A DNA stretch of 64,000 bases from Bacteroidia bacterium. GTDB lineage: Bacteria; Bacteroidota; Bacteroidia; NS11-12g; UBA9320. Positions 26,548 through 41,258 of the stretch are shown here, piece after piece. Position 1 is the stretch's first letter, and each line of letters starts with the position of its first letter. The translations under genes were made by a program, and so were the position numbers. The notes beneath the pieces are model-generated. The model ran no database searches and was not told the DNA's origin. It worked only from the letters and a program-made list of their open reading frames with translations. The stretch is from contig CBDCFW010000003.1 of assembly GCA_965216465.1 (NCBI GenBank), forward strand, positions 256,001-320,000, given 5' to 3'.

Positions 26548-27477
26548 ATGAGTAGTGAGAGTACAAATTGGGTAGAGTCATTTTACGATGCATTAAAGGA
26601 AAGAGTTAAAAGTCCATATACTGGGGCGTATATATTTTCATGGATAGGGTATAATTATGATTTGTTCATATTATTATTTTTCGTGGATGGAACAAAAAAG
26701 GGATTAGACAAGATTGAAGAAGCTAAAAGAATACTTGGAAATTCATTCATCGCTGATTTGGATAAAGATTTTGGATTTTGGGGAACGTTCTGGATTCCTG
26801 CAGTTGCCGCATTAACATTGATGTTGCTATTTCCAATTATTAATATGGCTGCATCTATGTATAGTAATTGGATGAAGAAGGTTACTCGATCCAAAATATT
26901 AAAGCAAGGGAAGAAGTTTACTGTTTCAGGCGAGGAATATTTTGATAAACTAATGGAAATTCAGAGGTTAAATGATGAAGCAATTGCAGAATCAAAAAGA
27001 GTCCAAGAATTATCAAATATTTGGAAGAAAGAAAAGAAGGAGAGTGAGAGAGTAAAAGATAAGTATATTATGTTGATTAGAGCAGAATCCGCGATTAAGG
27101 AACCCTATCAATTTGCGACAGATGGAATAATTCTAGATCATTATATACGTGGCAAAGAAATAGGTGAACATATGGAAGCACTTAGAACGTTTTATATTTT
27201 GTACGGGGCAATGAAGGGTTTTATAAATAGAGATGAGGAAGTACTGACGTCGATCATATATTCTAAATGGGCTACTAGATTCGAAACTGATGGAATATTT
27301 GTTTATGAAATAGAAACAAAATTAACAGGACGCACAGGATTGGCTAATGTAGTTAGAGTAAATGTATTAAGAGGAACTAGATTTAAGAAGACTGGTTTAG
27401 CTTTGCTAGTCAGAATGTTGATAAAAGAGGAATACCAAGAGATATATAAAAGGGCAAGTTTAAATGATTTGGGATGA
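26548..27477 (+). CDS. Membrane protein with coiled coil (accessory cargo)
   Basis: ERVKSPYTGAYIFSWIGYN then two TM segments and coiled coil; AT/purine-rich DNA. Confidence 0.7.
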   Translation: MSSESTNWVESFYDALKERVKSPYTGAYIFSWIGYNYDLFILLFFVDGTKKGLDKIEEAKRILGNSFIADLDKDFGFWGTFWIPAVAALTLMLLFPIINMAASMYSNWMKKVTRSKILKQGKKFTVSGEEYFDKLMEIQRLNDEAIAESKRVQELSNIWKKEKKESERVKDKYIMLIRAESAIKEPYQFATDGIILDHYIRGKEIGEHMEALRTFYILYGAMKGFINRDEEVLTSIIYSKWATRFETDGIFVYEIETKLTGRTGLANVVRVNVLRGTRFKKTGLALLVRMLIKEEYQEIYKRASLNDLG

Positions 27478-27489
27478 TAATTTTGCGAT

Positions 27490-27771
27490 ATGGATACAAT
27501 AAATAAAGAAGAATTTGCGGCCCTATTTGGAATGATAGGATGGATGTGTAATGAGCTTGCAATGATAAAGGGAATGAATCAAGTCCTGCTAAAAATGATT
27601 GCAACTGACAAGGGTTTTGAATTAGAAAATGTGAAAAAAGAGATAGAGTCTTTTTATGCATCTTACAATTTGATCAGTGCAGACAAGCTAGACCAAATAG
27701 TGAGATATGCAACAGATGAAGATTATAGGAATGAACAAGGTGCCGACTTCTATAAGAAGTTATTTAAGTGA
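27490..27771 (+). CDS. Hypothetical protein
   Basis: 93-aa ORF co-oriented 12 bp after previous gene. Confidence 0.6.
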   Translation: MDTINKEEFAALFGMIGWMCNELAMIKGMNQVLLKMIATDKGFELENVKKEIESFYASYNLISADKLDQIVRYATDEDYRNEQGADFYKKLFK

Positions 27772-27863
27772 TATCAAATACCCGACTTCCTAAAGATCTG
27801 CAGCTGAAAATACGATATCAATTTGTATTTCGGAAACCAGGAGCTTCAGGAGAAAATGACATC
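27770..27863. repeat. 44-bp-period GATATC array, copy 1
   Basis: GATATC at 27770 and 27814, GACATC at 27858; AGATCTGCAGCTGA at 27794. Confidence 0.85.
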
Positions 27864-27968
27864 ATTTAATCTTCTGAACCTCTCATAAATGATTAAGGAA
27901 GTTCTGGATCCACAAACTGTAGAATCAAGATAGGCCCTATAAACAGGGGCAATTTATATATTTGAGTT

Positions 27969-28871
27969 ATGATTATTTGGAAATTACTATTATGGTTGAT
28001 GGAGGCTAGCTCTGAGATTGTGGGAATACTAGGGCAAATGACAAGTGTTGTTTTTTCAACTCTGCTTACTCTTTTTATTGTTTGGTTAAGACAGTTCTAT
28101 GTAAAAAGATATGATGCTCAGAAAGTGGCAAAGGAATTGGAAGAGAAAAGAAGGTACTACTTAAAAATGGCTCGACTAGGTGCCGAAAGTTTAAAGAAAT
28201 ACTCAAAGATTCTTAAAGATAATAGAAACCTGTTCAAACGAATGGCTAGTGGTAAACTTGGAGTGTTTAATACTATGCAAATAAGTGCAATAATTGAATT
28301 AGAAAAAATGGATTTATTGAGATACAATAAGGCATTTAATGTTGTTAATGAAGGTCGAAAAGTTGAAGTTGAAGAGTGTCAAATAAACATTGCCAATCAT
28401 GCCAGATTTATTATTGCGATACATGAAAGATATTTAGAAGAGGTAAAAGAATTTATAAGTGCTTACAACGAACATAGAAAGGAACATGACGAAGAAATTA
28501 GAAGGATGATTGGTTTGGATGAGAATGTTAGAGTCAAAATACAAAAGATGTCACCGACGCGAGAAGAACAACGGTATTTTATGGAAGTTCACGGCATTAT
28601 AGATGAGTATATGAAGGTAGATGAGGAGGTTAGAATTTACAGCTCACAAGAATTATTAGTAAAACCATTATCAGAAGCTTGTATGAAGTATTATTCTTTG
28701 TCTTGGGCATCAGATATGCAAAAGGCAATTGGAAAAAGTAGAGATGCTGATGCCCAAATATTAACCGTGGTCAAAGCTGCTAGTACACAGTCTAAAATAT
28801 ATGCGGATAATGCTACAAATGCTGCTAAGAAGGTAGAAGAAAATATTAAGTTGCTTGAGAGTTTGTTGTAA
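27969..28871 (+). CDS. N-terminal TM helical protein (accessory cargo)
   Basis: Hydrophobic N-terminus then long helical region. Confidence 0.7.
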   Translation: MIIWKLLLWLMEASSEIVGILGQMTSVVFSTLLTLFIVWLRQFYVKRYDAQKVAKELEEKRRYYLKMARLGAESLKKYSKILKDNRNLFKRMASGKLGVFNTMQISAIIELEKMDLLRYNKAFNVVNEGRKVEVEECQINIANHARFIIAIHERYLEEVKEFISAYNEHRKEHDEEIRRMIGLDENVRVKIQKMSPTREEQRYFMEVHGIIDEYMKVDEEVRIYSSQELLVKPLSEACMKYYSLSWASDMQKAIGKSRDADAQILTVVKAASTQSKIYADNATNAAKKVEENIKLLESLL

Positions 28872-28922
28872 TTGGTTAATATTGGCCACATAACAGATCA
28901 AAGATTTAATATCAATAGAACT

Positions 28923-28950
28923 TGTGCCTATAATTTATAGTATGTTCCTA
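28923..28950 (+). other. dif-like hybrid site (attL of element A)
   Basis: TGTGCCTATAA-TTTATA-GTATGTTCCTA; 11-6-11 layout, degenerate XerD arm. Confidence 0.8.
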
Positions 28951-29008
28951 GTCTTTATAAACCTCTGAATATGAAAACTTTAGGTTAATTCTCGAAAGAG
29001 TAGGCCTG

Positions 29009-30202
29009 TTGATAAAAAAAGAAACTTTACTTGATCATACATACCTTGAAGAGAACACTTTAAAAGTCGCATCAATCGACAGTTTAAAGTTGAGAATCCC
29101 TTTCGAAGAGGTAAAGTTAATAAAAACTGACTTAGACGACAATTGGAAATATCTAAACGACTCCACCGGAGAGATTGACGAGAAGGAATATTTAAAACGA
29201 GCTTACTGGTCAAGAGCCAAAGGAATAGCCACTAAATATGCAGTAGAACACCAAACAATAGAAGGTGGCCACATCAGAAAATACTTGGTAATCCTGGTAA
29301 GTTCTAAAGTTCTCAAAGAACTTTATTTCTATGGCATCAGCAAGAAAACAATCTTCCATCTTTTAAAGGAGATCAATAATCAAAATGTTGTAAATCTTGA
29401 AATGTATCAGCTCCTTCAGGCTGAATGCGTAGATATTGATTTCAAAGTAGATTATGAAATGACAATCCATGAGTTTGAAGGATTAATTGAATTGTCTAAA
29501 CACATGACCATCCCAAAGCAACGCCTTAAAACAGGATATCAAGTTTTCTTGGGAAAAGGTAATAAAGGTATTGCTTGGGGAACACGTCAAACACAATCTC
29601 CAAAAACAAATCCATTCTGGAAACACTACCACAAAGGATTAGAGCTAAAAGAAAAATCCTATGAATTCACTGACGAATACCTAACAGACCAGGTATTTGA
29701 AAACAGATGCCGGACCGAGTTTACCATCAAAAACCGCCAACACTTAAACGCAGTATTCGGAAGTCCGCAAAGTGATTTAAACTATTTGATCAATCTTCCT
29801 CAAGATAAGCTGTTTGCAGCCTTAAATATGTGCATCGATGCACACTTATATCGTCCTGACGGATACAAACCTATTGAAGAACGGACCTATAAAAACCCTG
29901 CTGACACCATCATAAGCAATTTAATCCAGGTAGCAATCATGTCCAAGTTTTCTGAAACACACATCATAGAAATAGCCTTAAATGGAATAACGGACAAACA
30001 TCGAAGAACCAGGCAGAAGAAAAGAGTGCGATTCTTGATCAGGCAACTGGTACATCAGCATCCATCCACACAAAATCAATTGGCCAAGAATAAAGCGGGC
30101 CACGAGTTATATAAATGGCTAACAGACGAAGGTAAGGATAACAGAAGTGTCTCAACGGAGTTAACCCAACAATTACTTTTCTATAAAACGATGTATGACT
30201 AG
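29009..30202 (+). CDS. Rolling-circle replication initiator (Rep_trans / phage gene II-X-like)
   Basis: IDSLKL, DIDFKVD, HYHKGLE, CRTEFTIK resemble the D.D...D / Y.K..E / R.E pattern; homolog of 37350-38600; TTG start. Confidence 0.7.
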   Translation: MIKKETLLDHTYLEENTLKVASIDSLKLRIPFEEVKLIKTDLDDNWKYLNDSTGEIDEKEYLKRAYWSRAKGIATKYAVEHQTIEGGHIRKYLVILVSSKVLKELYFYGISKKTIFHLLKEINNQNVVNLEMYQLLQAECVDIDFKVDYEMTIHEFEGLIELSKHMTIPKQRLKTGYQVFLGKGNKGIAWGTRQTQSPKTNPFWKHYHKGLELKEKSYEFTDEYLTDQVFENRCRTEFTIKNRQHLNAVFGSPQSDLNYLINLPQDKLFAALNMCIDAHLYRPDGYKPIEERTYKNPADTIISNLIQVAIMSKFSETHIIEIALNGITDKHRRTRQKKRVRFLIRQLVHQHPSTQNQLAKNKAGHELYKWLTDEGKDNRSVSTELTQQLLFYKTMYD

Positions 30203-30359
30203 ACTTGAAAAACTAAAGGCCAAAAGAGCAACTCTCCAGGACTACATAAAAAAGACTGGAAGCACTCAATTTGCAGAAAGGTTATCCAACCTAAATAAGG
30301 CAATATTTTGTCTTGAATGGCTTGAAAACAACCAAAAAATAATTGATGAGCTGATTTAG
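30195..30359 (+). CDS. 54-aa helical protein (absent from ORF track)
   Basis: MTRLEKLKAKRATLQDY...LSNLNKAIFCLEWLE overlaps rep stop; resembles 39586-39783. Confidence 0.6.
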   Translation: MTRLEKLKAKRATLQDYIKKTGSTQFAERLSNLNKAIFCLEWLENNQKIIDELI

Positions 30360-30454
30360 GCTCCAGGGTCATTTCTAGATAATGACCCTAAGTTGCGTTG
30401 GACCGCAACCACGATGCAAAGCGAGTGGGCGTCCAACCACTTAGGGCTAAATCA
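30352..30454. other. Multi-hairpin non-coding region, candidate replication origin of element A
   Basis: Inverted repeats AGGGTCATT/AATGACCCT, CCCTAAGT/ACTTAGGG, GTTGGAC/GTCCAAC, TGATTTAG/CTAAATCA. Confidence 0.55.
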
Positions 30455-30585
30455 TCCTATACATCTATAATAAACTCAATACTAGTGTGTTACGCTGAAA
30501 TATTACTCAAACCTTCAAAAAAGCCTTGAAGTACATATATGTAATAGCAGATTACATAAGAATTTATTAATAACACATAGCAATT

Positions 30586-31317
30586 ATGGCCGAAATTTTA
30601 AATACCACGGGAGTGGTATCAGCAAAAGCAAAAATCGCAACTTCAGTTATAAAACTGGGTATGACGATTGAAGACCAAACTGCAGGTTTGGCAAAGGCAG
30701 ACTTGGAAAACATTCTAGTAAAAATCATTGATGCAGGAAATGGTTCAAATCCTGTAATCCACAGCGTGGATTTATGGACCTTACTGGAAGAAAGTGCTGA
30801 GACTGTAGGAGTGTTCATGTTGGCAGCTAACAAATTGACTGGAAGTGTTGACCTTGTAGTGGATGAAATGCCATTTAACGCAAGAGAAATTAACTTCCTT
30901 GAAGTTCAATTATCAGGATTGGTTGCAACGCAAACCGTAAAACTTTATGCTATCGATGGATGGGGTAATGATGGAGCATTAAGAAACTTACAGCTCAAAT
31001 CAATTGTAGGAAGTGCAATGAATGACATTAGTTTAATGGGAGTTAAACGCATGATTATTCCAATTTCTAAGATTGACTCTGTAACACTTGATTATCCAGC
31101 TTTAGGCAATCTAAAAGCAAAATCAGTAACCTACACAGAAGAGGAGCTTGAAATCTTACAGCTTGAAGACCCTGGTATTGTTTACCTAAAAGGTAAATCA
31201 GCAACACCACAGTATCTGGTAGAAAACAATTGGATTCTAGCCTGTAACAATGCAGTTAGAGCCAAAGTACAACCTAAAGCTGCTGCGGGAGACTTCAACA
31301 TCCTACTGGACAAGTAA
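30586..31317 (+). CDS. Putative major capsid protein (beta-rich, jelly-roll candidate)
   Basis: 243 aa, first gene of structural operon; similar to 40432-41169 (VDLWTLLE/IDLYTLFE, GSVDL/GMVDL, IDSVTLDY/VDYVEITY). Confidence 0.55.
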   Translation: MAEILNTTGVVSAKAKIATSVIKLGMTIEDQTAGLAKADLENILVKIIDAGNGSNPVIHSVDLWTLLEESAETVGVFMLAANKLTGSVDLVVDEMPFNAREINFLEVQLSGLVATQTVKLYAIDGWGNDGALRNLQLKSIVGSAMNDISLMGVKRMIIPISKIDSVTLDYPALGNLKAKSVTYTEEELEILQLEDPGIVYLKGKSATPQYLVENNWILACNNAVRAKVQPKAAAGDFNILLDK

Positions 31318-31412
31318 TGGCACTCAAATTCATTTACAAAACCAAAGCACAGCGGCGTAAGATTTTACGCAACATTGCTTTAAGCAAGAAGAAAGGAAAT
31401 GGGAAAGGGTAG
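31317..31412 (+). CDS. 31-aa highly basic peptide (absent from ORF track)
   Basis: MALKFIYKTKAQRRKILRNIALSKKKGNGKG; TAATG coupling to capsid-candidate stop. Confidence 0.5.
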   Translation: MALKFIYKTKAQRRKILRNIALSKKKGNGKG

Positions 31413-31803
31413 ATTAAAAAAATGGTTCAAGGAAAAAGGAGCTAAGAAGATTTTAGGTGGCCTGGAGAAATTCGGGACACTTATTCCTGGAGTGGGTGGA
31501 ATTGTTTCTACTGGAGCTGCTCAATTAAAAGAGCGCTTAGGCGACAAGGAAGCACAAAAAGCAATGGCAGCAACGTACGCAGGTGCGGTTGCTGAATCAG
31601 TGGACAACGCTCAAGGAATAGTATCTAGACAAGGCTCATTTGAAGAACAAGTTGAGATGGAAGCAAAAAAGCAGAGAATCAAAAGAATTTTAGGACAAGT
31701 AGGTATGGTGTTAGCGGGGCTAACTGTCGTACTTATTCCAATTATTCTAATTGTTAGATCACGCAAACGAAAAGGTTTTGCACGTAAAAAAAGAAGAAGA
31801 TAA
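31399..31803 (+). CDS. Basic protein with C-terminal TM and poly-basic tail
   Basis: Same architecture and slot as 41259-41666. Confidence 0.75.
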   Translation: MGKGRLKKWFKEKGAKKILGGLEKFGTLIPGVGGIVSTGAAQLKERLGDKEAQKAMAATYAGAVAESVDNAQGIVSRQGSFEEQVEMEAKKQRIKRILGQVGMVLAGLTVVLIPIILIVRSRKRKGFARKKRRR

Positions 31804-31805
31804 TC

Positions 31806-32066
31806 ATGTTGAAATTAGACGGAAAAAACAACGGAACACTGTGGCTTGAAGAGAAAGACCGCAAGGTGTTCAAAGGAGACAGAAAAGGAGAAACTTACCA
31901 GTGCTTTGAAGGCACAATCGACACTGGAGGCGGTAAAATGATTACAATAAAAATGTATTCAAACACCGATCCAGTAGATAAAGACGGTAAGACATTACTG
32001 CCTTTAAAGGTTTCCAAGTGGAAAGGTAATCCAAGCCGCAGAAAGACTACTAGAAAAAGCTGGTAA
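31806..32066 (+). CDS. Small beta-rich basic protein (possible ssDNA-binding)
   Basis: Operon-coupled; slot equivalent to 41669-42043. Confidence 0.6.
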   Translation: MLKLDGKNNGTLWLEEKDRKVFKGDRKGETYQCFEGTIDTGGGKMITIKMYSNTDPVDKDGKTLLPLKVSKWKGNPSRRKTTRKSW

Positions 32067-32257
32067 TGTTAAAGTGGCTAAAGACAGGATTTGGTTGGCT
32101 GAAAACAGCCAACCAATTCTACCGAAAGGTTAAGACCTCATTCAAAATGATTGAATGGGTTGGAGACGTTTTGGAATTTGCACAGAAAAGGTATGCTGAA
32201 ATCTTTGAAATAGAAGACGACAGCGAAGTAGAACAGGAAAATCAGACCAATGAGTAA
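32066..32257 (+). CDS. Amphipathic helical protein with acidic tail
   Basis: Similar to 42052-42276 (KW...EW.GDV..FA vs KW...DW.NGV..YA). Confidence 0.7.
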   Translation: MLKWLKTGFGWLKTANQFYRKVKTSFKMIEWVGDVLEFAQKRYAEIFEIEDDSEVEQENQTNE

Positions 32258-32906
32258 TGAAAGCGAAAAATATAGCCATCATTGTAGTGTCAATTGTCCT
32301 CATTGTGGGGGGCTTCTTACTATACAAACGGCGCAAAAAAAAACGTTAGACGACCATCGTGAAAGTAGGCTAAAGTTAGCAGGTAAGGTGATTCTAAAAT
32401 GGGAGGGGGGATATGTCAATGACCCCGACGATAGAGGAGGAGCAACCAACAAAGGTGTAACTTATGCTACTTATCAAAATCTAGCACATAGTGTTTTAAA
32501 GGTATATCCAACGAAAAAGCATTTTGAAAGTCTTTCAGACAATGAAGTGCTGAAGATTATCGCCTGGTACTATGATAAGGTAAAAGGTGATCACTTAAAA
32601 AGTGGAGCTGTTGCAGTAGGAATAACAGATTATTATTGGGGAAGTGGATTGTATGCCATCAAACGCATCCAATCAGCTTTAAATATCCATTACTCAAGAA
32701 ACTTATCAGTTGATGGCGTAGTGGGAGCAAAAACTGTCCAGGCTATCAATTCGGTTCCTGCTAAACATATGCTATCAATCTTAAAGGAAGTACGAGCACA
32801 ACACTATGCAGCGATTGTAAGACACGATGCAAGTCAAGGTAAATTCATAAACGGTTGGAACAATCGCAATTATGATGTCTTTAACTCTTTAATTGAATAT
32901 GTATGA
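32250..32906 (+). CDS. Endolysin, glycoside hydrolase family 108 with peptidoglycan-binding domain
   Basis: EGGYVNDPDDRGGATNKGVT, VDGVVGAKT, KFINGWNNR. Confidence 0.9.
   Translation: MSNESEKYSHHCSVNCPHCGGLLTIQTAQKKTLDDHRESRLKLAGKVILKWEGGYVNDPDDRGGATNKGVTYATYQNLAHSVLKVYPTKKHFESLSDNEVLKIIAWYYDKVKGDHLKSGAVAVGITDYYWGSGLYAIKRIQSALNIHYSRNLSVDGVVGAKTVQAINSVPAKHMLSILKEVRAQHYAAIVRHDASQGKFINGWNNRNYDVFNSLIEYV
32257..32349 (+). CDS. 30-aa single-TM peptide overlapping lysin gene (absent from ORF track)
   Basis: MKAKNIAIIVVSIVLIVGGFLLYKRRKKKR; TAATG-coupled; counterpart of 42269-42457. Confidence 0.65.
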   Translation: MKAKNIAIIVVSIVLIVGGFLLYKRRKKKR

Positions 32907-33307
32907 TCAATGAAATAGATATCGAAAAAGAAGTAATCCAAACGACTACTTTTAGGCAAAAACTAAATCCAATGTATTGGTTCAGACGCTTTGTACAACC
33001 TGCCTTCAGGCAAATTTCTTTCTATTCAGGAATTAACCTGGTATGGAAGATTACAGACGTGTTTATCAAAGTGCCAAAATTGATAAACGAAGAGGATGCA
33101 GATATGGTAAGCAGTAAAACAAGAAAACAACAATTGTTGAGTATTGTCTTACACATCTTATTTATAGCACTACCTCTTTTACTGATACTTAAAAAGAAAT
33201 GGTATGTCTTACCAGTCGTACCAATTCTTATGGCGTTTAATATCCTGGTACACTTACGAGGAATATACCTAGCAATCATGGTATATCGAAGTCATGCACG
33301 GAATTAA
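32903..33307 (+). CDS. Membrane protein
   Basis: Two C-terminal hydrophobic segments; ATGA overlap with lysin. Confidence 0.65.
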   Translation: MINEIDIEKEVIQTTTFRQKLNPMYWFRRFVQPAFRQISFYSGINLVWKITDVFIKVPKLINEEDADMVSSKTRKQQLLSIVLHILFIALPLLLILKKKWYVLPVVPILMAFNILVHLRGIYLAIMVYRSHARN

Positions 33308-33539
33308 ACCTACACTCATAGGGTTTGCTTCACTTGCAGGGGTTAATGTTGCTGAATTAACAGCAGAGAACCTAGAAAGCATTGAAGCAATCCTTATGAG
33401 CTTAGTTAAATGGATAATAGCAGGATTAACCATTTACACCCAAATCAAATCAATCAGAAATGAAAAAGCTAATAACCGGGTTGCTAATGATAGTAACCGT
33501 GCTAGTGGCTCCAGGAGCACTAGCAGAACAAACAAGTGA
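33294..33539 (+). CDS. Small membrane protein (holin-like)
   Basis: Two hydrophobic segments, basic tail; resembles 42834-43031. Confidence 0.6.
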   Translation: MHGIKPTLIGFASLAGVNVAELTAENLESIEAILMSLVKWIIAGLTIYTQIKSIRNEKANNRVANDSNRASGSRSTSRTNK

Positions 33540-33930
33540 CAACCTAAATTTTAACCTAAAAACAGAAATACAAATGTGTAACGAACATGTAAACTACGAG
33601 TTTGAATTAAGCGATACCAGACAACCATTGTTCTGCGATTCAAAACATCTTCTAGTAGGTGTTATAAATCACTTTTCAGATTTCACCAACTATAAGATCA
33701 ATACTGACATTGATCCTGGAACTGGTGCACCATGGGTAATAGACAGTGGCTTAAATGATGCAGAGATACTAATTAACTCGCTAAAATCAGGCGGCACTAA
33801 AATACCAATAGAACTGATAAAGAATATTCCTTTAGATCAGTGGCATGAAAGAGGAACAAGGGATATCAATGCGCCTATTGCCACTGGTAACACCCGTAGG
33901 TATGTTGTAATCAAGTGTAGACAGGCTTAG
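33460..33930 (+). CDS. Putative minor virion protein (penton/spike candidate)
   Basis: From MCNEH (33574) aligns with 43012-43380: LNDAEILIN/LNEHEIFIN, GTRDI/GTRDV. Confidence 0.6.
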   Translation: MKKLITGLLMIVTVLVAPGALAEQTSDNLNFNLKTEIQMCNEHVNYEFELSDTRQPLFCDSKHLLVGVINHFSDFTNYKINTDIDPGTGAPWVIDSGLNDAEILINSLKSGGTKIPIELIKNIPLDQWHERGTRDINAPIATGNTRRYVVIKCRQA

Positions 33931-33932
33931 TC

Positions 33933-34118
33933 ATGGGATTAAGTAAAGAAAAATCCAAGCACTTCAACAAGAAAGTCAAAGAATTTTCTAAAACAGCTTG
34001 GGAAACATTCAACACCACTCACTTTGATTCACTAGCTGAATATCAAAATGAGAAGTTCTTAGTTGAGCAATCAATTAGAGAATTTCAACGCTCAGAACTT
34101 GATAAAGTAAAGGAGTAA
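33933..34118 (+). CDS. Small helical protein
   Basis: AWETF..THFDSLAE...VEQSI resembles AWAEF..TDFDTVQE...VEQQI of 38735-38965. Confidence 0.65.
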   Translation: MGLSKEKSKHFNKKVKEFSKTAWETFNTTHFDSLAEYQNEKFLVEQSIREFQRSELDKVKE

Positions 34119-34146
34119 ACATTGTAGCAGATCTGCTCAACATGCT

Positions 34147-34174
34147 AAAAGCCACCTTTTGCAGGTGGCTTTTT
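34147..34174 (+). terminator. Terminator of element A structural operon
   Basis: AAAAGCCACCT-tttgc-AGGTGGCTTTTT. Confidence 0.85.
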
Positions 34175-34354
34175 AGTGATAATATACTGAAATTATATGT
34201 GAATTGGGTTATGTAAATAGATACAAATTGATATCTATTTATATGCAGTTTAATTTAAGGGATGGACGTAATATTGTTCACTGAATTGTAAAATGTTTTG
34301 GATATCCAAAACTTTGGAATGGATTTTGTACCTTTGTAACCGTTAAATAATACT

Positions 34355-34642
34355 ATGTCTAATAAAATAAGAGTAACTAATCATAAGGTCCTTGTGCTTT
34401 ATAGTTTTGATGAAGTAAATAAACTTTATACTCTTTCAACACTTGAAAGAGGAGGACCTCTTGTTGTGGATTCGGATTTCGAAACAGCTAAGAAAAAAAT
34501 GGCTGAGCAACTAATTGTTGTAAGCTCTCTTGGTAAATTAATGTTCTATGATAAATATAGGACTAATGAAGATAGGAAGACATCGTTGGCTAATAGTTTA
34601 GGGAAGGTTATAGAGGAGACGTATTTGGAACTTGTAGCATAG
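34355..34642 (+). CDS. Cargo protein, HicB-N-terminus-like
   Basis: beta-beta-helix pattern LVVDSDFETAKKKMAEQL; weak resemblance. Confidence 0.4.
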   Translation: MSNKIRVTNHKVLVLYSFDEVNKLYTLSTLERGGPLVVDSDFETAKKKMAEQLIVVSSLGKLMFYDKYRTNEDRKTSLANSLGKVIEETYLELVA

Positions 34643-35152
34643 ATGTTAATTACCTATCGAGCACTAAGAGAACTTTTATATCAGAAATATGCAGAGAAGT
34701 CTCTGCAAGGAGTTATAGACGACTTTTCAGAATATTTTGATGAATCCCTCGCAACTGCAGAGCAGATTGAGGATTATGAGTATCTGTCAACATTCATTGA
34801 GAATAGAAAGGATATAGAAGAGAAATATCGTTTTTTCTGGAACTACAAGCAATGTTCGGTGCCAACGATGGTGGAGAAGCATGACTATTACACGGTTGAT
34901 GCATTATCAGTAATTGCTTATGATCATCCCGATATCGACGTAAGACATTTTGAACAGCTCATTGAAGAGATTGCAACAAGAGACAAGCACGATTTGGAGC
35001 AGTGGTTAGGTAGATTTAGAAGTTTGTACAAGGCTAGAGTAAATATTGGTAACGCGATACGAAGCTACAAATTAGGGTACATCGGAAGAAATGATCTTTG
35101 CTACTGCGGGAGTGGTAAGAAATACAAAAAGTGCCACGGGTTCAATAATTAA
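34643..35152 (+). CDS. SEC-C motif protein (cargo)
   Basis: C-terminal GRNDLCYCGSGKKYKKCHG. Confidence 0.85.
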   Translation: MLITYRALRELLYQKYAEKSLQGVIDDFSEYFDESLATAEQIEDYEYLSTFIENRKDIEEKYRFFWNYKQCSVPTMVEKHDYYTVDALSVIAYDHPDIDVRHFEQLIEEIATRDKHDLEQWLGRFRSLYKARVNIGNAIRSYKLGYIGRNDLCYCGSGKKYKKCHGFNN

Positions 35153-35155
35153 AAC

Positions 35156-35296
35156 GATATCAAATCACTTTGTCCTGGAGCTGCTCGAGCTGAACAAATG
35201 ATATCAAATCCGTTTCCGGCGTCCAGGATCTCAGGGTAAATATGATATCAAATAACTTATCTGCAGCAGATCTGCAGCTGACCAAATGATATCAAA
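35156..35296. repeat. 44-bp-period GATATC array, copy 2
   Basis: GATATCAAA at 35156, 35200, 35244, 35288. Confidence 0.9.
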
Positions 35297-35384
35297 AGAA
35301 ATAACTATAGGTTTTGCTCCAATGTCTATATTTGAATGACATATTAAATTTGTTACGTAACATTAGGGATTGATGTGATCAAAT

Positions 35385-35412
35385 AAAAAGCCACCTGTAA
35401 AAGGTGGCTTTT
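35385..35412 (-). terminator. Terminator, inverted near-copy of 34147-34174
   Basis: AAAAAGCCACCTGTAAAAGGTGGCTTTT; reverse complement differs by one base from the 34147 hairpin. Confidence 0.75.
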
Positions 35413-35725
35413 CTGTTTTTAGATTAACTAAATCCATGCGAACATGGACAAAACCTTTAATGATCAAAAATAAAAGCCGTCTCCTCTGGAAACGGCAATT
35501 AATAAGGTTAGTTAGGTACTATTGCTAAATATAAACACGAAGATAACCTAAATGGTAACAAAACCTCCTGAATAATAGAAATGTATAGGAACTACTGAAT
35601 TAATTAGGTATACTTGATAGTCCTTAACTTATTTTACTACTGGTTATCTATTAATCAAAGTTGAGGTATTAACCCTAGGCCATCCCGAGTGGGGTTTTGG
35701 GATGGCCTTTTTTGTTAATTAGAAA

Positions 35726-35965
35726 TCACTCAATCTTCTCAAGCTCCTTTAAATGATAAAAGAAGTTCTTAGTCTTGTCCTTGACATCTCTAAGTTGAAT
35801 TTCAAGTGATGAATTCTCATCGGTCAAAGACTTAATCCTATCACACATGGGAATGTAGGAGCGAAGCAATAATGCAAAAATTTCTGAATTGGTTTTAATG
35901 TAGGTCTTAGCTTTAATAGCCTCTAACTGTTTAGTCTGTTGATCTGTTAATCTTGATACTAGCAT
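35726..35965 (-). CDS. Ribbon-helix-helix-like DNA-binding protein with coiled coil
   Basis: MLVSRLTDQQ...IKTNSEIFALLLRSY; clear homolog of 39132-39368; start moved to ATG 35965 on that basis. Confidence 0.7.
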   Translation of the reverse strand: MLVSRLTDQQTKQLEAIKAKTYIKTNSEIFALLLRSYIPMCDRIKSLTDENSSLEIQLRDVKDKTKNFFYHLKELEKIE

Positions 35966-36168
35966 AAATAAAATTTTAACATGGTTAAACATTTTCGAGT
36001 AGACTCTCGATCTCTCGAAATCATAGGCATCCAAAGGCGTAAGTGAAAAGCAGTTGTCAATATAAATGAAGGGCAGTAGGGTATAGGCCAGTGTTTAAGC
36101 ATTGACAACAATGTTCACGGGCCAATTTTGCACTCTGATTATGAGAAAAGAATAGGTATCTTTGGAGT

Positions 36169-36423
36169 GTGAGCAATAAAGAAAAGTTATCAGGTAAAGA
36201 GTTGACTATGTATAAGCAGATAGAAACAAACTATGAATATAATGGTAAAACCTTCAAAAATGATTATGTACACCAGATGAGCATTATAGGATATAAACGA
36301 ATAGAAATACCTGGTGTAGAGTTTATTGGTGTTGGTGGTCAGAATTATTTAGAAATCGAGAGGACATACAGAGATATGTTAGTCATGTTCTGCCAAGACC
36401 GAGGAATAACTGAGCTTGATTAA
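36169..36423 (+). CDS. Hypothetical protein
   Basis: 84-aa ORF, GTG start. Confidence 0.5.
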   Translation: MSNKEKLSGKELTMYKQIETNYEYNGKTFKNDYVHQMSIIGYKRIEIPGVEFIGVGGQNYLEIERTYRDMLVMFCQDRGITELD

Positions 36424-36800
36424 TAAGGCAATTTAACACGTTTCAATTTCTTTGGCTTATCACCAATAGGGTTTGGCACAAACAATTGCTTAACATTCTC
36501 AAACACCTCAAAATGATGCAATAATTGCTCTTCTAAAGTTTCTATTTGCTTCTGAAGTGACATAATAGTGTCGAAATCTTCCATCGATCTACGCTGTAAT
36601 TTCATGTGCCGAATCAACATTCTTTCAACAATGTCATGTAATCCATTTGCATCATGATGGAAATATTTGAACTCTTTATAAGCTGCCTTAGCCTCATCAG
36701 AAAGCAGCGTAAATATTAGGGGTTTACCACATTCTTCACATTTCATAGACAGCAAAAAACTAATCAGGATTTTGAATATTTTGTATATAAAAAGATGCAA
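36420..36800 (-). CDS. Coiled-coil protein with N-terminal CxxC
   Basis: MKCEECG (likely start 36746), then helices; slot equivalent to 43810-44172. Confidence 0.55.
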   Translation of the reverse strand: MHLFIYKIFKILISFLLSMKCEECGKPLIFTLLSDEAKAAYKEFKYFHHDANGLHDIVERMLIRHMKLQRRSMEDFDTIMSLQKQIETLEEQLLHHFEVFENVKQLFVPNPIGDKPKKLKRVKLPY

Positions 36801-36871
36801 GCTGTTGAAAACGTGTGAATTATCGACGAATGATAAAACTAATATTTGAGTTCGAAATCAAATTAGTTATC

Positions 36872-37021
36872 ATGGTATTAATACTTAATCAACGAGAAGC
36901 TCGTATGCTTAAACGTCTCATACAAGGATATGAAAGACGAACTCCTGCAAAACGTCAGAAGCGTAAAATCACTGAAGGATTAAAATTAAAACTTAATGAT
37001 AAAAAGAAAGCCGCTGCATAA
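36872..37021 (+). CDS. Small basic protein next to attR of element A
   Basis: MVLILNQREARMLKRLIQGY...; followed by terminator; slot equivalent to 44253-44444. Confidence 0.55.
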   Translation: MVLILNQREARMLKRLIQGYERRTPAKRQKRKITEGLKLKLNDKKKAAA

Positions 37022-37041
37022 AACTATGCGAGCGGCTTTTT
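37007..37041. terminator. Bidirectional terminator
   Basis: AAAGCCGCTGCATA-aaac-TATGCgAGCGGCTTTTT. Confidence 0.8.
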
Positions 37042-37214
37042 AATTTCTTAAGCGGTACTTAATCAAATTTAGGTTCGAAATCAAATTTTATCATGTTGAC
37101 CGCTTAGATGTATAACTTCTAAAGTTATTCACTTTCAAATATAAAAGCTAAACAAATGTACGTGAATGGATTAGCCACGAATGTTAAAACGTTGTTAACA
37201 AAAGAGTTATTATT

Positions 37215-37242
37215 TGTGCCTATAATTTATATTCCGCTAACC
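37215..37242 (+). other. dif-like hybrid site (junction of A and B)
   Basis: TGTGCCTATAA-TTTATA-TTCCGCTAACC; left arm and spacer identical to the 28923 site. Confidence 0.8.
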
Positions 37243-37349
37243 GCTTTAGCACCAAAAAGACAGCGTTATCAACGAATTGTGGACTATTCGATTCCAAATG
37301 TTGAAAGTGCAAAACATTGTTAACAATTAAGCACAAAGTATGTGTTTAA

Positions 37350-38600
37350 TTGAAAAATCAAAATAAAGGAGATTGGCAGCGTAAAATACTGCATTCAATA
37401 GAAGTAGACAGTTTGAAGCTCTCGTTTGAGCTTAACCACTACGAACCGTTAAATCAAATCAAAATTCTTGATACTCGTCTAGGTACTGAATACCGAAAAA
37501 TTACTATTGATGGTGAAGAGATGGACGAGAAGCTCTACAAGGAGAATGCTCGACAATATGGAGCAGACAAAGCACCAATTTATATGAGTTTGGTTGCACG
37601 TCAAGACTTAGCAACGAAAGAAGTCAAAACGTATCTAGTAATATTAATCAATTCTAAGCATTTAGGAGCGCATTATTTCAAAGGTATAAAACGTCATAAT
37701 GTTGGTAACATATACGATGCCATAATAGCGACAAAAGCCGTAAGAATGGATTACAGCATCTTTATGCAGGGCAAGGTTACAGACTGTGATTTTAAGATGG
37801 ATTACCAAATGGAGTTTCACGAATGGATTAAACTAAATGAATTTGCAAGAAAGAGGACTAAGTTGCACACTCGCAGCGATTCGGGATATACGAGGTTTCC
37901 AAAAAAGGATAACGGAATTGACCGTGAAAATTACAAAATGTATGGTACTCAATGGAGCTTTAGAACAACAACGAGTTTTGCAACTGCACCATATATTAAA
38001 ATGTATCACAAAGGGCTAGAAGCAGAACATAGAAGTTCAGAGTTTTTTTCTTCTTATGAATTTGAGGGTTACGGTAATACGGTGATAGATTATAGCGATA
38101 TAGTAAGAACTGAGTATACTATCAAAAACAAAAAGCATTTTAAACAAGCTGGGATGGTCAAAGATGACCAAGACAACACGCTTGAAAATATTCTAAACTT
38201 TAACTATGAAACAAAGCTAAGTGCTTTAATAGATGGCTTTGCTGCTCATTGGAAAAAAGAGAAAGCAAGAATTACACAAGTAACAGGCTTAAAAGGCGTT
38301 CAGTTGATGCTTGCCGCTTTAATAGATGACCAAGTTAAACAAGGCGGAAAGAGTAAGTCAGAATTAAGAGATACGGCTCTTTCACTTCTTCCAAAAAAGA
38401 ATCAAGAACGCTACAAGAAGCTGTTTGAAGAGGTGTGGAGATATCTAGCAATTGAAGAGGATTTTAGAGTTGAAGCAGAAAATAATGAAGCTGCATACAA
38501 TTGGTTTAAAATCTTGGTTGAGGGTTCAAAGAATACCAAACTAAGAGGAATGTTTACAGACGAAGCAACATATACGGAAAGATGGCACGAAGCAAGTTAA
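37350..38600 (+). CDS. Rolling-circle replication initiator (Rep_trans / phage gene II-X-like)
   Basis: VDSLKL, DCDFKMD, MYHKGLE, VRTEYTIKNKKH; homolog of 29009-30202; TTG start. Confidence 0.7.
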   Translation: MKNQNKGDWQRKILHSIEVDSLKLSFELNHYEPLNQIKILDTRLGTEYRKITIDGEEMDEKLYKENARQYGADKAPIYMSLVARQDLATKEVKTYLVILINSKHLGAHYFKGIKRHNVGNIYDAIIATKAVRMDYSIFMQGKVTDCDFKMDYQMEFHEWIKLNEFARKRTKLHTRSDSGYTRFPKKDNGIDRENYKMYGTQWSFRTTTSFATAPYIKMYHKGLEAEHRSSEFFSSYEFEGYGNTVIDYSDIVRTEYTIKNKKHFKQAGMVKDDQDNTLENILNFNYETKLSALIDGFAAHWKKEKARITQVTGLKGVQLMLAALIDDQVKQGGKSKSELRDTALSLLPKKNQERYKKLFEEVWRYLAIEEDFRVEAENNEAAYNWFKILVEGSKNTKLRGMFTDEATYTERWHEAS

Positions 38601-38734
38601 GTAATTATTTCATTGGCAAAGATGGAAGGTTATATTTAAAGAAGTATGGGAGTGAATATAGTGTCAGAGGGTTTGCCAATTTAGGAGAACGGTTATTTGT
38701 GATAACAGATGGAAAAAATTAAATATTTAATAAA

Positions 38735-38965
38735 ATGTCAAAAGAAGATTTCAAAACAAAAACAAAGACAATGATTGAGAATTTCAATACTGCGTCAAAC
38801 GATGCTTGGGCGGAGTTTGAAGCTCGTACAGACTTCGATACGGTTCAAGAAAGAGAAGATGCAAGGCTACAAGTTGAGCAACAAATTAAAATCGACCATA
38901 AAAAGCTAAAAGAGGATATCAAAGCTGAAAAGGAGCTTTACAAGGCTGAAGCAAAGGCAGAATAA
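38735..38965 (+). CDS. Small helical protein
   Basis: Similar to 33933-34118. Confidence 0.65.
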   Translation: MSKEDFKTKTKTMIENFNTASNDAWAEFEARTDFDTVQEREDARLQVEQQIKIDHKKLKEDIKAEKELYKAEAKAE

Positions 38966-38999
38966 GAGACTTATTTGTAATTCATGTTTGTTTAAAAGT

Positions 39000-39029
39000 A
39001 AAAGGCAGTCCGTAAATGGGCTGCCTTTT
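39000..39029. terminator. Intrinsic terminator
   Basis: AAAAGGCAGTCC-gtaaat-GGGCTGCCTTTT. Confidence 0.85.
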
Positions 39030-39039
39030 CTGTTTAAAC

Positions 39040-39136
39040 GATATCAAAAAGTGAGTTCAGATCCTGGAAAAAACACTTGAAATGATATCAAATACTTTCT
39101 CCAGGAAAGATCTGCAGCTGATTAAATGATATCAAA
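39040..39136. repeat. 44-bp-period GATATC array, copy 3
   Basis: GATATCAAA at 39040, 39084, 39128; AGATCTGCAGCTGA at 39108. Confidence 0.9.
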
Positions 39137-39368
39137 TATCCATCATCTTCTTTAAATGGTAGGTAAAATCCTTTACGTTGTTTTTAATGGAATTGTTCTG
39201 TATTGATAAAGATGAATTTTCTTCTACCAAGTCTTTAATTCTAGATTGACTAGGTAAATAAGCACGTAAGCAAAGGGCAATAACATCTGAGTTGGTTTTA
39301 ATACCTGTATGCTCCTTAATGAGTTCAATTTGTTGTTTCTGTTCGTCTGTTAATCTTGATATAAGCAT
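39132..39368 (-). CDS. Ribbon-helix-helix-like DNA-binding protein with coiled coil
   Basis: MLISRLTDEQ...IKTNSDVIALCLRAY; homolog of 35726-35965. Confidence 0.7.
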   Translation of the reverse strand: MLISRLTDEQKQQIELIKEHTGIKTNSDVIALCLRAYLPSQSRIKDLVEENSSLSIQNNSIKNNVKDFTYHLKKMMDI

Positions 39369-39375
39369 GATATTA

Positions 39376-39579
39376 TTAATTATTAGGTGGTGTTATATAT
39401 CCAATACCGTTTTGAAAAAAGTGTTTTGCTGTACAAACAACATAGGGCTTTTTGTTAGGGTGCTTCTCGCTGTATCGGTTGCGAATAGTGCGTGTAAAAA
39501 TGAAGAGTTTTGGCTTTTGTGGTTGTGATGCTAAGAAAGTAGCAGCCTCGCTGTACGTTTCAAATTCAAATTGTGTCAT
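39376..39579 (-). CDS. Small hypothetical protein
   Basis: Tightly packed in minus-strand three-gene cluster. Confidence 0.55.
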   Translation of the reverse strand: MTQFEFETYSEAATFLASQPQKPKLFIFTRTIRNRYSEKHPNKKPYVVCTAKHFFQNGIGYITPPNN

Positions 39580-39585
39580 AATGAT

Positions 39586-39783
39586 TTATTTAATTTTTGC
39601 GGCTGTGAAAGATTTGAGGTATTCTAGGTTGTCAATAGCTTGGTTTAAGCTTGCTACTGAAAGGTTAAGGTAAATGGAAGAGGTGTATTCACGTCTTAAC
39701 GGTGCTTGTTCGGCATACTCGCGAATCAAGTCTCTTTTCATTTTAAGTGTGATTAGTGTGTCGTTGATTAAGTCGATTGTCAT
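39586..39783 (-). CDS. Small helical protein
   Basis: LKMKRDLIREY...LNQAIDNLEYLK resembles 30195-30359. Confidence 0.6.
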   Translation of the reverse strand: MTIDLINDTLITLKMKRDLIREYAEQAPLRREYTSSIYLNLSVASLNQAIDNLEYLKSFTAAKIK

Positions 39784-39924
39784 GTTTCAATTATTTAAAA
39801 AGTTATACTTCAGGCGTAAGCAATTGCAGACCTGCTTCGCTCCGCCAATATTTTTTTTCGGAAAAACCGAAATATGAAACAAACACAAGCAAAAAGGCTT
39901 TCATAGAACTATAAAAGAGGGGGA

Positions 39925-40301
39925 CAAAAGTTTATTCCGTCAGGATCAAACTTTTGGCAAGAGGGTAGTGGCTAGTGTTTATGCGTTCGACTGAAATCCG
40001 ACTTGCTTAAACTCGTTGAAATAATTCTTTTTCTCTGAAAAAATTATCCAATTATTACTACTGTAAAAATGTCGTTTGTGATACCCAATTAGGGTGTCAC
40101 AAATCTGCCCGAAATAGGGCTTAAAAATCCCAATTTTTCAAAATCGAAAAATCCCACCTTATGATGGTGGGGAATTTGCCTCAAATTTGAGGTTTTTGCT
40201 TTGTCCAAAAAACGGACGAAATCTGAGTCCTTTTTTTGGTGTTTTTGCAGACCAATATCGACCCGATTTTAAGGCTTGATTTGCTACTCAAGTAGCGAAA
40301 T
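39925..40301. other. Hairpin-rich non-coding region, candidate origin of element B
   Basis: TTTGTGAtACCC/GGGTgTCACAAA, CCCACC/GGTGGG, CCTCAAATTTGAGG, GCTACT/AGTAGC upstream of capsid candidate. Confidence 0.5.
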
Positions 40302-41169: not shown

Positions 41170-41258
41170 GAAATTCATTTATTTATTGGTTTAGGGTTCA
41201 GGAAGCGGGCAGTATACGGAGATAGTTAGCTGCCCGCAATTCCGAAAATAAAAAGCAG

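Follow-up and report, generated by a model that had tools for sequence, protein, structure and literature searches.

Three arrays of GATATC cores repeated every 44 bp lie in a 64,000-nucleotide stretch of a Bacteroidia genome (the window), and we propose with moderate confidence that they are rows of binding sites for a small protein encoded at 39132-39368 and for its paralogue at 35726-35965, with a ruler-like geometry and a regulatory role. From the observed co-occurrence, co-variation and exact spacing, together with a predicted oligomer, we infer binding, the ruler geometry, the function of the spacers and the regulatory outcome as the best explanation of the data. No published description of a cassette consisting of a 44-bp array and a protein gene was found in the literature searched, in agreement with the initial annotation, which did not recognize the arrays as a described feature.

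The arrays and their distribution

The arrays are real and all lie on the plus strand. Array 1 (27770-27863) has GATATC cores at 27770 and 27814 and, at 27858, a degenerate third one (GACATC); its left end falls within the stop codon of a 93-amino-acid gene (27490-27771), and no ribbon-helix-helix (RHH)-coiled-coil gene adjoins it. Array 2 (35156-35293) has four cores, at 35156, 35200, 35244 and 35288, with a period of exactly 44 bp, and begins 3 bp past the stop codon of a SEC-C-motif gene (34643-35152). Array 3 (39040-39133) has three cores with the same exact period, at 39040, 39084 and 39128, the last of which shares bases with the stop codon of the gene 39132-39368 on the minus strand. 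The pattern GATATC-N38-GATATC occurs six times in the window, always within the three arrays and on one strand only, whereas none of 100 shuffles contained such a pair (mean of 0.00, maximum of 0). The 14-mer previously noticed in all three arrays is indeed present as exact copies at 27794, 35268 and 39108.

The arrays are not scattered over the host chromosome, as the same six pairs are the only ones in the whole genome of 3,231,698 bases. This confinement to the small elements described below sets the arrays apart from host sequence and is a point in favor of the proposed binding sites. The 65 other genomes of the family that were searched had no additional arrays and contained two single GATATC-N38-GATATC pairs, both in apparent coding sequences. 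The exact 22-base pattern around the shared 14-mer had 0 matches in viral contigs. The arrays do not have the repeats of at least 23 nt, the unrelated spacers and the cas genes of a CRISPR locus; the conserved core of the units is about 14 bp, the spacers have motifs in common and are homologous between arrays, and no cas family was detected among the neighboring window open reading frames (ORFs) scanned.

The small protein beside the arrays

The gene at 39132-39368 (minus strand) encodes a putative array-binding protein of 78 amino acids with a predicted strand and two helices. The paralogue at 35726-35965 (minus strand) has 79 amino acids when read from an internal Met of the ORF 35726-36034, is 55% identical and sits about 430 bp to the right of array 2, past three terminator-like hairpins (35386-35412, plus strand; 35476-35496, minus strand; 35677-35708, plus strand). 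The window genes for the small protein are either directed into the arrays or located apart from them. No further protein of the window type was found in 400 sampled genomes of the class.

An AlphaFold2 monomer model of the 78-amino-acid protein (pLDDT 83) has helices at residues 8 to 21 and 29 to 77 and is non-helical at residues 1 to 7, and the protein is predicted to have a short N-terminal strand, an RHH-like head and a coiled-coil tail (helix 29-77). Database support for the RHH assignment was below significance: the best RHH match in Pfam, VapB_antitoxin, had an E value of 0.068, below its cut-off, a PDB profile search with the window protein gave coiled-coil noise and nothing significant, and a PDB fold search also gave nothing significant, with RHH antitoxins (ParD) appearing only at E values of about 4 to 6. 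A NikA-like cluster in the Atlas, matched at 0.80, is a lead only. A four-copy model (ESMFold2) scored 0.74, compared to 0.36 for the best of three controls, on a scale whose mark was calibrated with two copies and not four (20 of 30 same-chain-pair structures and 1 of 23 single-chain structures reached it). Separate runs agreed in at least 76% of the contacts, and the partner pLDDT was at least 84. One copy is paired in register with a second over residues 1 to 65, residues 1 to 7 included, and touches the other two copies via residues 60 to 76 only, and the predicted assembly is that of two parallel dimers joined at their tips.

Related cassettes in filamentous phages

Both window proteins align colinearly, at about 20% identity, with small proteins of the phage contigs L009, L016 and L020. 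Among PHROGs, phrog_8031 ranks first or joint first for both, at non-significant E values of 0.026 and 0.045 but in colinear matches covering residues 1 to 55 and 1 to 59. The same family matches the phage relatives on L020, L146, L009 and L145 at E values from 7.5e-5 (L020) to 7.9e-38, and the L016 protein had no phrog_8031 match at an E value of ≤0.1. The profile that retrieved the window proteins had those same proteins in its build.

Evidence for a connection between protein and array comes from these phages. A pair of palindromic hexamers 43 to 45 bp apart is found upstream of the family gene in 18 of 18 distinct regions, compared to 8 of 124 control tiles of the same phage loci, although the loci are related and perhaps represent eight independent lineages with one clear switch of palindrome type. 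The distance between successive cores in the phage loci is exactly 44 bp in 34 of 66 cases. The palindrome also changes with the protein: GATATC accompanies an Arg in the N-terminal strand in three very different subfamilies, the one in the window included, while GGTACC accompanies a Lys two residues earlier in four subfamilies. No loci were found for a third palindrome type, that of the MVIQLRD subfamily. Both comparisons back one of the readings in the initial annotation, that of phased sites for the nearby RHH/coiled-coil protein.

The placement of the arrays has common features as well. Arrays 1 and 2 of the window and those of L016, L020 and L146 start at most 5 bp from the stop codon of the preceding rightward gene, and the last core lies 7 to 23 bp 5' of the ATG in 16 of 18 phage loci. 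In the filamentous phages the array is directly upstream of the gene, in an operator-like position; in the window it is on the 3' side of the gene or apart from it. The "DNA-binding protein" of Pseudomonas phage Pf 17897 (OR621025.1) belongs to phrog_8031, and this family resembles the window proteins in length, predicted layout and the type of array beside the gene. It differs in that the window genes face the array from the opposite side, in the Bacteroidota host and in that the match is weak. No mention of an array was found in the available part of the Pf 17897 paper (PMC10675462).

Relatives are also present as free 7-kb circles, in three records filed as Pseudomonas aeruginosa plasmids; the family was not found on ordinary plasmids. 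In metagenome contigs, a two-core pattern gave 119 loci, of which two (L264 and L277) have a family member, the majority being different 11- or 22-bp TGATATCA iterons; about 10 metagenome contigs have look-alike arrays with GC-rich spacers and no family member detectable even at an E value of 1. A three-core pattern in genome contigs gave at least 119 matches, mainly 11- and 22-bp tandem repeats, and no array of the window kind was among the matches listed. Examples of such tandem repeats came from Prevotella pallens and a Bacteroidaceae metagenome-assembled genome. Nucleotide searches of phages with L020 and L016 returned a single weak inovirus match.

Composition of the spacers

The spacers had been described as resembling natural polylinkers; within the window, this impression stems largely from a single common motif. 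The window spacers (266 bases) contain 11 palindromic hexamers compared to 3.45 expected, a number reached by 6 of 5,000 random sets, but 9 of the 11 lie within the 14-mer common to three homologous units, and three of the seven spacers have no palindromic hexamer. A wider set of 26 spacers (7 from the window and 19 from filamentous phages) has longer local palindromes than shuffled sequences do (mean half-length of 3.35 versus 2.48; 0 of 2,000 shuffles), and dyad symmetry over the whole spacer is absent (149 matches versus 148.4 expected). The spacers are rich in CAG/CTG (67 versus 24.5 expected; z of 10) and CCWGG (27 versus 1.9 expected), figures that overstate independence because the array units are related by descent. 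The polylinker look is largely a product of this richness. CCWGG is present in 27 of the 29 array units listed, and its offset from the core start varies between 16 and 31, which is at odds with a fixed protein contact. Both CCWGG and CTGCAGCT are common to phage and window units, at like offsets and in the same orientation.

That the spacers collect recognition sites of restriction-modification systems, as a decoy or self-mark, was another reading in the initial annotation, and the many classic 4- to 6-bp palindromes and the near-universal CCWGG would fit it. However, the palindrome-rich look is all that speaks for it and is mostly due to CAG/CTG richness, a single compositional bias that explains the sites and is common to hosts of different phyla, which are unlikely to have restriction systems in common. 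A decoy would also explain neither why the spacing is strictly 44 bp nor why the arrays co-vary with the protein, and no methylase gene was seen among the neighbors scanned. We find this reading very improbable.

It is also improbable, if slightly less so, that the palindromes act in single strands, as a packaging signal, a complementary-strand origin or a structured RNA. In Ff phages the packaging hairpin directly follows the assembly genes, the position that the arrays have in filamentous phages, and the phage arrays fold better than shuffles (z of -2.5 to -5.0). But any palindrome-rich sequence outdoes its shuffles, and perfect 6-bp palindromes are incapable of forming hairpins. For the window the case is weak: the arrays fold no better than shuffles in four of six strand tests (z of -0.19, -0.47, -0.74 and -1.26; the other two gave -2.08 and -2.73), and the four matches to Rfam 15 in the region 25000-45000 are weak, all below the gathering score, and none lies over an array. 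Xanthomonas phages have a protein that binds the packaging signal (10.1101/2024.03.19.585677), but this signal is reported to be a single hairpin of 20 to 26 nt, and the WAGFXF motif of the binding protein is absent here.

Relation to Rep-like genes and to recombination sites

The window holds two Rep-like genes of small phage-like elements, one at 29009-30202 (plus strand), which has no Pfam or PHROG match, and one at 37350-38600 (plus strand), which is 30% identical to the first. The elements are small, lysin-carrying, integrated and arranged in tandem. A scan of viral contigs with the alignment of the two Rep-like proteins found no relative. The closest related element is in a genome of the same genus (G025) and has a Rep 62% identical but no array.

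The arrays had been expected to go with this Rep, but from the sequence comparisons they are not linked to the Rep gene. The non-coding parts of the G025 element have no GATATC pairs and no other 8-mer repeat with a period of 30 to 60 bp, while phage L009, whose proteins have no BLASTP match to those of the window, carries units of near-identical design, and the two window elements have the array in different positions with respect to Rep. The same three observations speak against the Rep-like protein binding the arrays as iterons of a rolling-circle origin. Direct repeats are a frequent feature of origins, and arrays and Rep-like genes do occur in the same elements, but we consider this the least probable of the explanations weighed here.

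The initial annotation assigned one array to each element or remnant. This is one possible parsing; the gene order in G025 points to arrays 2 and 3 being internal to elements rather than at junctions. The point bears on whether the arrays could be att junctions of tandem elements, or accessory DNA that influences Xer recombination at a dif-like site nearby. In L009/L277 and Pf 17897, the array is 5 to 15 bp from sequences that we take to be dif-like, judged by eye against the E. coli dif sequence. Pf 17897 has two of these in inverted order, and CTX-type attP sites consist of two dif-like sites in inverted order. Tandem prophages, with two copies about 7.2 kb apart, are found on three IMG/VR contigs (L152/L153, L157/L159 and L158/L160), and the window elements are likewise in tandem. 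In L016, L020 and L146, however, nothing resembling a dif site separates the array from the stop codon of the assembly gene that it abuts, and we saw none next to the window arrays either; besides the internal position of arrays 2 and 3, the direct repeat 25658-25703/35472-35517, which is distinct from the arrays, is a better att candidate. A recombination function is unlikely, though somewhat less so than the restriction decoy. Contigs from three runs of one source sample span the arrays without joints, which is uninformative on excision.

A proposed ruler-like complex

According to the explanation that we favor, the sites would act as double-stranded DNA, and the RHH-like N termini of a dimer would recognize the 6-bp palindrome together with its A/T flanks. 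The long C-terminal helices may pair into a parallel coiled coil, and the tips of two dimers may join to give a rod-shaped tetramer with a DNA-reading head at either end. Such a rod could reach from one palindrome to another 44 bp away, acting as a molecular ruler that dictates the exact period, and in rows of three or four sites, neighboring tetramers would coat the entire array, with the CAG/CTG- and CCWGG-rich spacers as the bendable DNA spanned by each rod. The tetramer length estimated by arithmetic from the contact list of the model is about 120 to 130 Å, too short for the approximately 150 Å of 44 bp of straight DNA.

The gene and its array would constitute a portable cassette, accessory to small rolling-circle phages and found in filamentous phages of Pseudomonas and of metagenome hosts and in the Bacteroidota elements of the window. 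Its job is most likely regulatory. In the filamentous phages the complex would cover the translation start of its own protein, which suggests autorepression. In the window, autoregulation through an upstream operator is impossible, since the genes are directed into the arrays or located apart from them and array 1 has no such gene beside it. In all contexts the complex would sit at the end of a rightward late operon, where it may be a protein roadblock that parts the late operon from regulatory genes.

In a bolder version of this explanation, the cassette would be a nucleoprotein device complete in itself and independent of the host, and it would have passed from one phylum to another. The rod tetramer would measure 44 bp and wrap or stiffen the CAG/CTG-rich DNA into a regular filament, which beyond repression might tether or partition the replicative form without an NTPase or, alternatively, hand over the rolling-circle template, in the manner of TraM, to the export or assembly machinery encoded next to it. 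We hold this to be speculative and rather doubtful.

About equally doubtful is that the complex of protein and array mainly keeps or clusters the double-stranded replicative form in carrier cells, as a segregation or stability site without an NTPase of its own and with autoregulation as a by-product, as in many partition loci. Known centromeres may lie upstream or downstream of the gene, which would accommodate both the filamentous phages and the window, and the period of F sopC is 43 bp. The free 7-kb circles filed as plasmids would also fit. For phage PMBT54, the authors of the corresponding report (PMC10534721) speculated that an omega-like RHH protein encoded at the same place in the genome contributes to episome maintenance. 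As in partition loci, iterated sites lie beside the gene of the putative binding protein, but the gene for a partner NTPase was not found, with no ParA, ParM or TubZ-like gene among 20 neighboring window ORFs (Pfam and PHROGs) and 10 ORFs of L009 (Pfam only). The elements are also small, and the replicative forms of such small elements are multicopy; moreover, the window copies are integrated, and the family is absent from the ordinary plasmids searched.

Comparison with known systems

The Mnt repressor of phage P22 has about 80 residues, with an N-terminal RHH and a C-terminal helix that makes a dimer-of-dimers tetramer, and binds palindromic half-sites, two of them adjacent within one operator of about 20 bp. 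The window protein is likewise a small phage protein with a predicted RHH-type head and predicted tetramerization through its C-terminal helix. In contrast to those of Mnt, the sites of a pair are separated here by 44 bp and come in rows of two to four, or more in some phages; the CAG/CTG-rich spacers are conserved, and no sequence similarity to Mnt was detected. TraM of F-like plasmids binds cooperatively to several sites beside its own gene, on DNA processed by rolling-circle-type nicking; its motifs at oriT are closely spaced, and it bridges to the coupling protein. Its RHH head and helical tetramerization domain (PMC3159463) recall the predicted layout here, but the spacing is another one, and no relaxase, coupling protein or homology was detected.

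RHH centromere binders with iterated sites include ParR/parC, ParG/parH and omega of pSM19035. These systems and F sopC have rows of short repeats, small dimeric proteins and often a neighbor-gene operator in common with the cassette, and the period of sopC is almost equal, but all of them have the partner NTPase gene that was not found here. The units of sopC are nearly identical and are the target of a ParB-type protein, unlike the units described here, in which the core and some spacer motifs alone are conserved.

Significance

Our findings provide a testable functional hypothesis for the unannotated phage family phrog_8031 and its Bacteroidota relatives and account for a conspicuous non-coding feature of small rolling-circle phages, prophages of P. 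aeruginosa included. The pairing of palindrome and N-terminal strand is a simple candidate recognition code. If the coiled-coil ruler is true, it would be a natural case of site spacing measured by a protein and a compact, orthogonal part for synthetic regulation, and if the bolder reading of the cassette as a device is true, single-stranded DNA phages would have a new type of segregation system or of assembly targeting. The occurrence of the cassette in Bacteroidota and Pseudomonadota phages of unlike architecture points to an exchange of regulatory modules across distant groups of viruses.

Results

The three arrays with a 44-bp period that the initial annotation had described were confirmed from the sequence at the positions claimed, with rows of GATATC cores on the plus strand at 27770 to 27863 (array 1), 35156 to 35293 (array 2), and 39040 to 39133 (array 3). 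The window contains six copies of the pair GATATC-N38-GATATC, all of them within these arrays and on a single strand, and 100 shuffles gave none; the third site of array 1 reads GACATC. Conservation extends past the hexamer to a core of about 14 bp with A/T-rich flanks, and a 14-mer common to the arrays has exact copies at 27794, 35268, and 39108. A whole-genome pattern search found no pair elsewhere in the 3.23-Mb genome, so the dispersal over the host chromosome that had been named as evidence against a specific feature was not seen, and the 65 other genomes of the family held only two single pairs, both chance-like in appearance.

Repeats of similar appearance were encountered in other sequences. 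TGATATCA is a common iteron core, carried at 11- or 22-bp periods by dozens of metagenome contigs (loci L170 to L288). About 10 low-GC metagenome contigs (e.g., L177, L187, L199, L205, L246, and L282) carry cores paired at 44 bp, separated by spacers that are palindromic and GC-rich, but have no detectable relative of the small protein described below; in L282, the pair comes after the end of a tyrosine-recombinase-like gene. The matches listed also included many dispersed short arrays of 22-bp repeats starting with GATATC in two Bacteroidales genomes (Prevotella pallens, loci L027 to L097, and JAFUSD01 contigs), which are unrelated to the 44-bp arrays.

Small phage-like elements occupy the window from about 25.7 to 44.2 kb and carry two Rep-like genes (29009 to 30202 and 37350 to 38600, 30% identical), matching sets of virion-protein genes (phrog_20547 and phrog_20088), a gene for a GH108 lysin, and one for a protein with a SEC-C motif. 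The two Rep-like proteins are members of a large family, with 914 representative clusters at an E value of ≤0.001 and 448 at 1e-30. This family had no match among the Pfam and PHROG models, and it has conserved motifs (D-x-D-x-K-x-D, Y-x-K-x-x-E, and R-x-E-x-T-I-K) that we take to be reminiscent of Rep_trans/gene II-type rolling-circle initiators.

Two genes for a small protein with an RHH-like head lie on the minus strand, one encoding 78 amino acids (39132 to 39368) and the other a 55% identical paralogue of 79 amino acids when read from an internal Met (35726 to 35965). Both products combine a short strand-like segment at the N terminus with two helices and a long heptad-rich tail. Array 3 runs into the stop codon of the 39132-39368 gene; about 430 bp, with three terminator-like hairpins, separate array 2 from the end of the paralogue; and array 1 has no adjoining small-protein gene. 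The last gene before array 2 (34643 to 35152) encodes a 169-amino-acid protein whose C terminus carries a SEC-C zinc motif (E = 8.6e-10). Two places in the window, and no others, show a hairpin with the same 15-mer after it: 25658 to 25703, at the left edge of the island, and 35472 to 35517, in the stretch from array 2 to the small-protein gene. The two could be att repeats on either side of a 9.8-kb insertion. Immediately to the left of the island, at 23068 to 24635, lie two paralogous genes in tandem whose products have C-terminal sorting domains for type IX secretion and which have 80%-identical DNA stretches in common.

The proposal that the arrays are tied to the Rep was not borne out. 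The nearest relative of the first Rep-like protein (62% identical) is encoded in a same-genus genome, G025, by a sister element (L144, G025:C8:166000-185900) in which the structural and lysis genes follow the same order and no array is present: it contained no GATATC pair, no other 8-mer repeat at 30 to 60 bp in its non-coding parts, and no homologue of the small protein. Compared to G025, the window element has additional DNA, flanked by the homologues of 33460-33930 and 36420-36800; this block contains array 2, the genes for the SEC-C protein and the small protein, and two further small genes, all missing from the sister element. Since this block is extra, the array and small gene appear to be an accessory insertion inside an element, which argues against the arrays being junctions between elements. 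The right-flank gene of the window (44941 to 46239) has an orthologue about 15 kb away from the sister element, in the opposite relative orientation.

The same design was found in filamentous phages. Pattern scans of IMG/VR returned four small contigs, L009 (7.7 kb), L016 and L018 (6.4 kb), and L020 (8.7 kb). By gene content, L009, L016, and L020 are filamentous phages, with Zot-type assembly ATPases, a G2P-type Rep fragment, and a secretin-like gene; L018 has its array region and small-protein gene in common with L016. L016, L018, and L020 have four GATATC cores at exactly 44 bp, in arrays that start 2 to 3 bp past the point where the last assembly gene stops (stop codon verified for L016 and L020); 22 bp separate their ends from the start of a gene for 86 to 87 amino acids. 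Phage and window units in the same orientation have features in common, among them a CCWGG at about offset 16 and CTGCAGCT at about offset 28, and the phage small proteins are colinear with the window paralogues at about 20% identity. Phage family phrog_8031 matched the phage proteins at E values from 7.5e-5 (L020) to 7.9e-38, except that of L016, which gave no match at E ≤ 0.1, and it was the best or joint-best match of the window proteins at values that were not significant (0.026 and 0.045). A profile search gathered 26 family proteins of 78 to 131 amino acids, including the window pair, most of them from Pseudomonas genomes or contigs of 6 to 10 kb; the sources give them no name or the label "hypothetical," with the exception of P0178, for which the JGI name is predicted RNA-binding Zn ribbon-like protein.

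Family loci were taken from two IMG/VR scans (19 and 3 loci) and from the annotated phage records Pf 17897 and blackswan219-6, and after setting aside two loci without upstream sequence and four duplicates, 18 distinct upstream regions were left. All 18 contained a palindromic hexamer with a partner at 43 to 45 bp, compared to 8 of the 124 tiles that served as controls in these loci, and the distance between successive cores was exactly 44 bp in 34 of 66 cases. One palindrome per locus, and no more, passed the pair test. GATATC is paired with N-termini that have an Arg in the strand (MLISR and MLVSR [window], MPSLLLR, and MHLIVR), and GGTACC is paired with those that have a Lys two positions earlier (MLIKL, MLIKI, MLVKL, and MLLKI). 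Residues two apart point to the same side of the two-stranded RHH ribbon, and the Arg/Lys change therefore sits where a base-reading residue is expected. We regard this co-variation as the main evidence that the small protein would read the cores; the loci behind it fall into about eight lineages with one clear switch, inside the Pseudomonas-type subfamily, and a search for a third core type found none.

An AlphaFold2 monomer (26-row alignment) had a pLDDT of 83, with helices at residues 8 to 21 and 29 to 77. A four-copy ESMFold2 model scored 0.74 against 0.36 for the best control, where the score mark is one reached by 20 of 30 same-chain-pair proteins and 1 of 23 single-chain proteins in a calibration with two copies, not four. 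Three runs agreed in at least 76% of contacts, with a partner pLDDT of at least 84. One copy forms an in-register pair with a second over residues 1 to about 65, and its contacts to the other two copies are confined to residues 60 to 76. We read the model as two parallel RHH-coiled-coil dimers placed tip to tip, and it supports, but does not show, self-association of the protein. Solved structures searched by sequence and by fold contained nothing similar. The predicted head-to-head distance is about 120 to 150 Å depending on protein length, by arithmetic from an inferred geometry at 1.5 Å per helical residue, and 44 bp of B-DNA spans about 150 Å.

In the window spacers, 9 of the 11 palindromic hexamers stem from a single shared 14-mer, and in 26 spacers from the window and phages, no whole-spacer dyad symmetry was found and local palindromes were longer than in shuffles. 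CAG/CTG was the most enriched trinucleotide in an unbiased k-mer count (22 versus 6.0 in window units and 45 versus 18.8 in phage units), CCAGG/CCTGG occurred 27 times versus 1.9 expected, and the inner spacer has 50 to 56% G+C in a window of 38%. Alternating CAG and CTG give rise to CTGCAG, CAGCTG, AGCT, and CCWGG. Of the 29 units listed, 27 have a CCWGG, at variable offsets, and we therefore favor a physical role of the spacers over either a contact at a fixed place or an accumulation of restriction sites.

Discussion

It is likely that the small protein binds the arrays. One reading offered in the initial annotation was that they are phased protein sites, and the partner protein in that reading is supported by co-occurrence and co-variation, while its connection with the Rep is not. 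The 44-bp spacing is probably measured by the protein. CAG/CTG tracts are unusually flexible, and the spacer may serve as deformable DNA beneath the protein rod, which is the least secure part of our account. Readings of the arrays as a single-strand structure, an RNA, a decoy for restriction or methylation, or Rep iterons are weaker.

In the phages, the last core lies 7 to 23 bp ahead of the ATG in 16 of 18 loci, and the array takes up the entire gap from the stop codon of the previous gene, so that the promoter or ribosome site of the small gene would lie under the complex. This suggests autorepression in filamentous phages, but it is not the whole story, because the window genes face their arrays from the other side. 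Common to all contexts is the position of the array at the end of a rightward late operon, and arrays 1 and 2 of the window and those of L016, L020, and L146 start no more than 5 bp from the last stop codon of the operon. We prefer a reading in which the protein-array complex would act as a roadblock or boundary and would also set the level of its own protein, and on balance we lean towards a bridging oligomer with a regulatory role. The main rival is a centromere-like or tethering role, which would fit both the free orientation of the gene relative to the array and the existence of relatives as 7-kb episomes, but no NTPase partner was found among the scanned neighbours. A role in Xer recombination is suggested by sequences abutting the array in two Pseudomonas-type lineages, which we take by eye to be dif-like (Pf 17897, OR621025.1, positions 1 to 120; L009, positions 5580 to 5625; and L277); in Pf 17897 two of these stand in inverted order around a hairpin, as in a CTX-type attP. 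The Xer role does not hold for the other phages or the window.

A full-text literature search found no description of the small-protein family together with its arrays. Among 12 of the 23 matching passages of the Pf 17897 deposition paper (PMC10675462), none mentions the array, and the GenBank record annotates the family gene as "DNA-binding protein." For PMBT54 (PMC10534721), an omega-like RHH gene is reported at a similar position and the authors speculate on episome maintenance; this gene was not matched in tblastn searches with the family. The Xanthomonas packaging signal and its PSB15 protein are a different system. The known systems closest in architecture are Mnt, TraM, and RHH centromere-binding proteins, and F sopC is the closest in period.

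The cassette is of a kind already known, namely iterated sites for a small RHH-type oligomer, and it has three unusual features: an exact 44-bp spacing that is probably set by the protein, spacers that are conserved and CAG/CTG-rich, and a spread over phages of two phyla.
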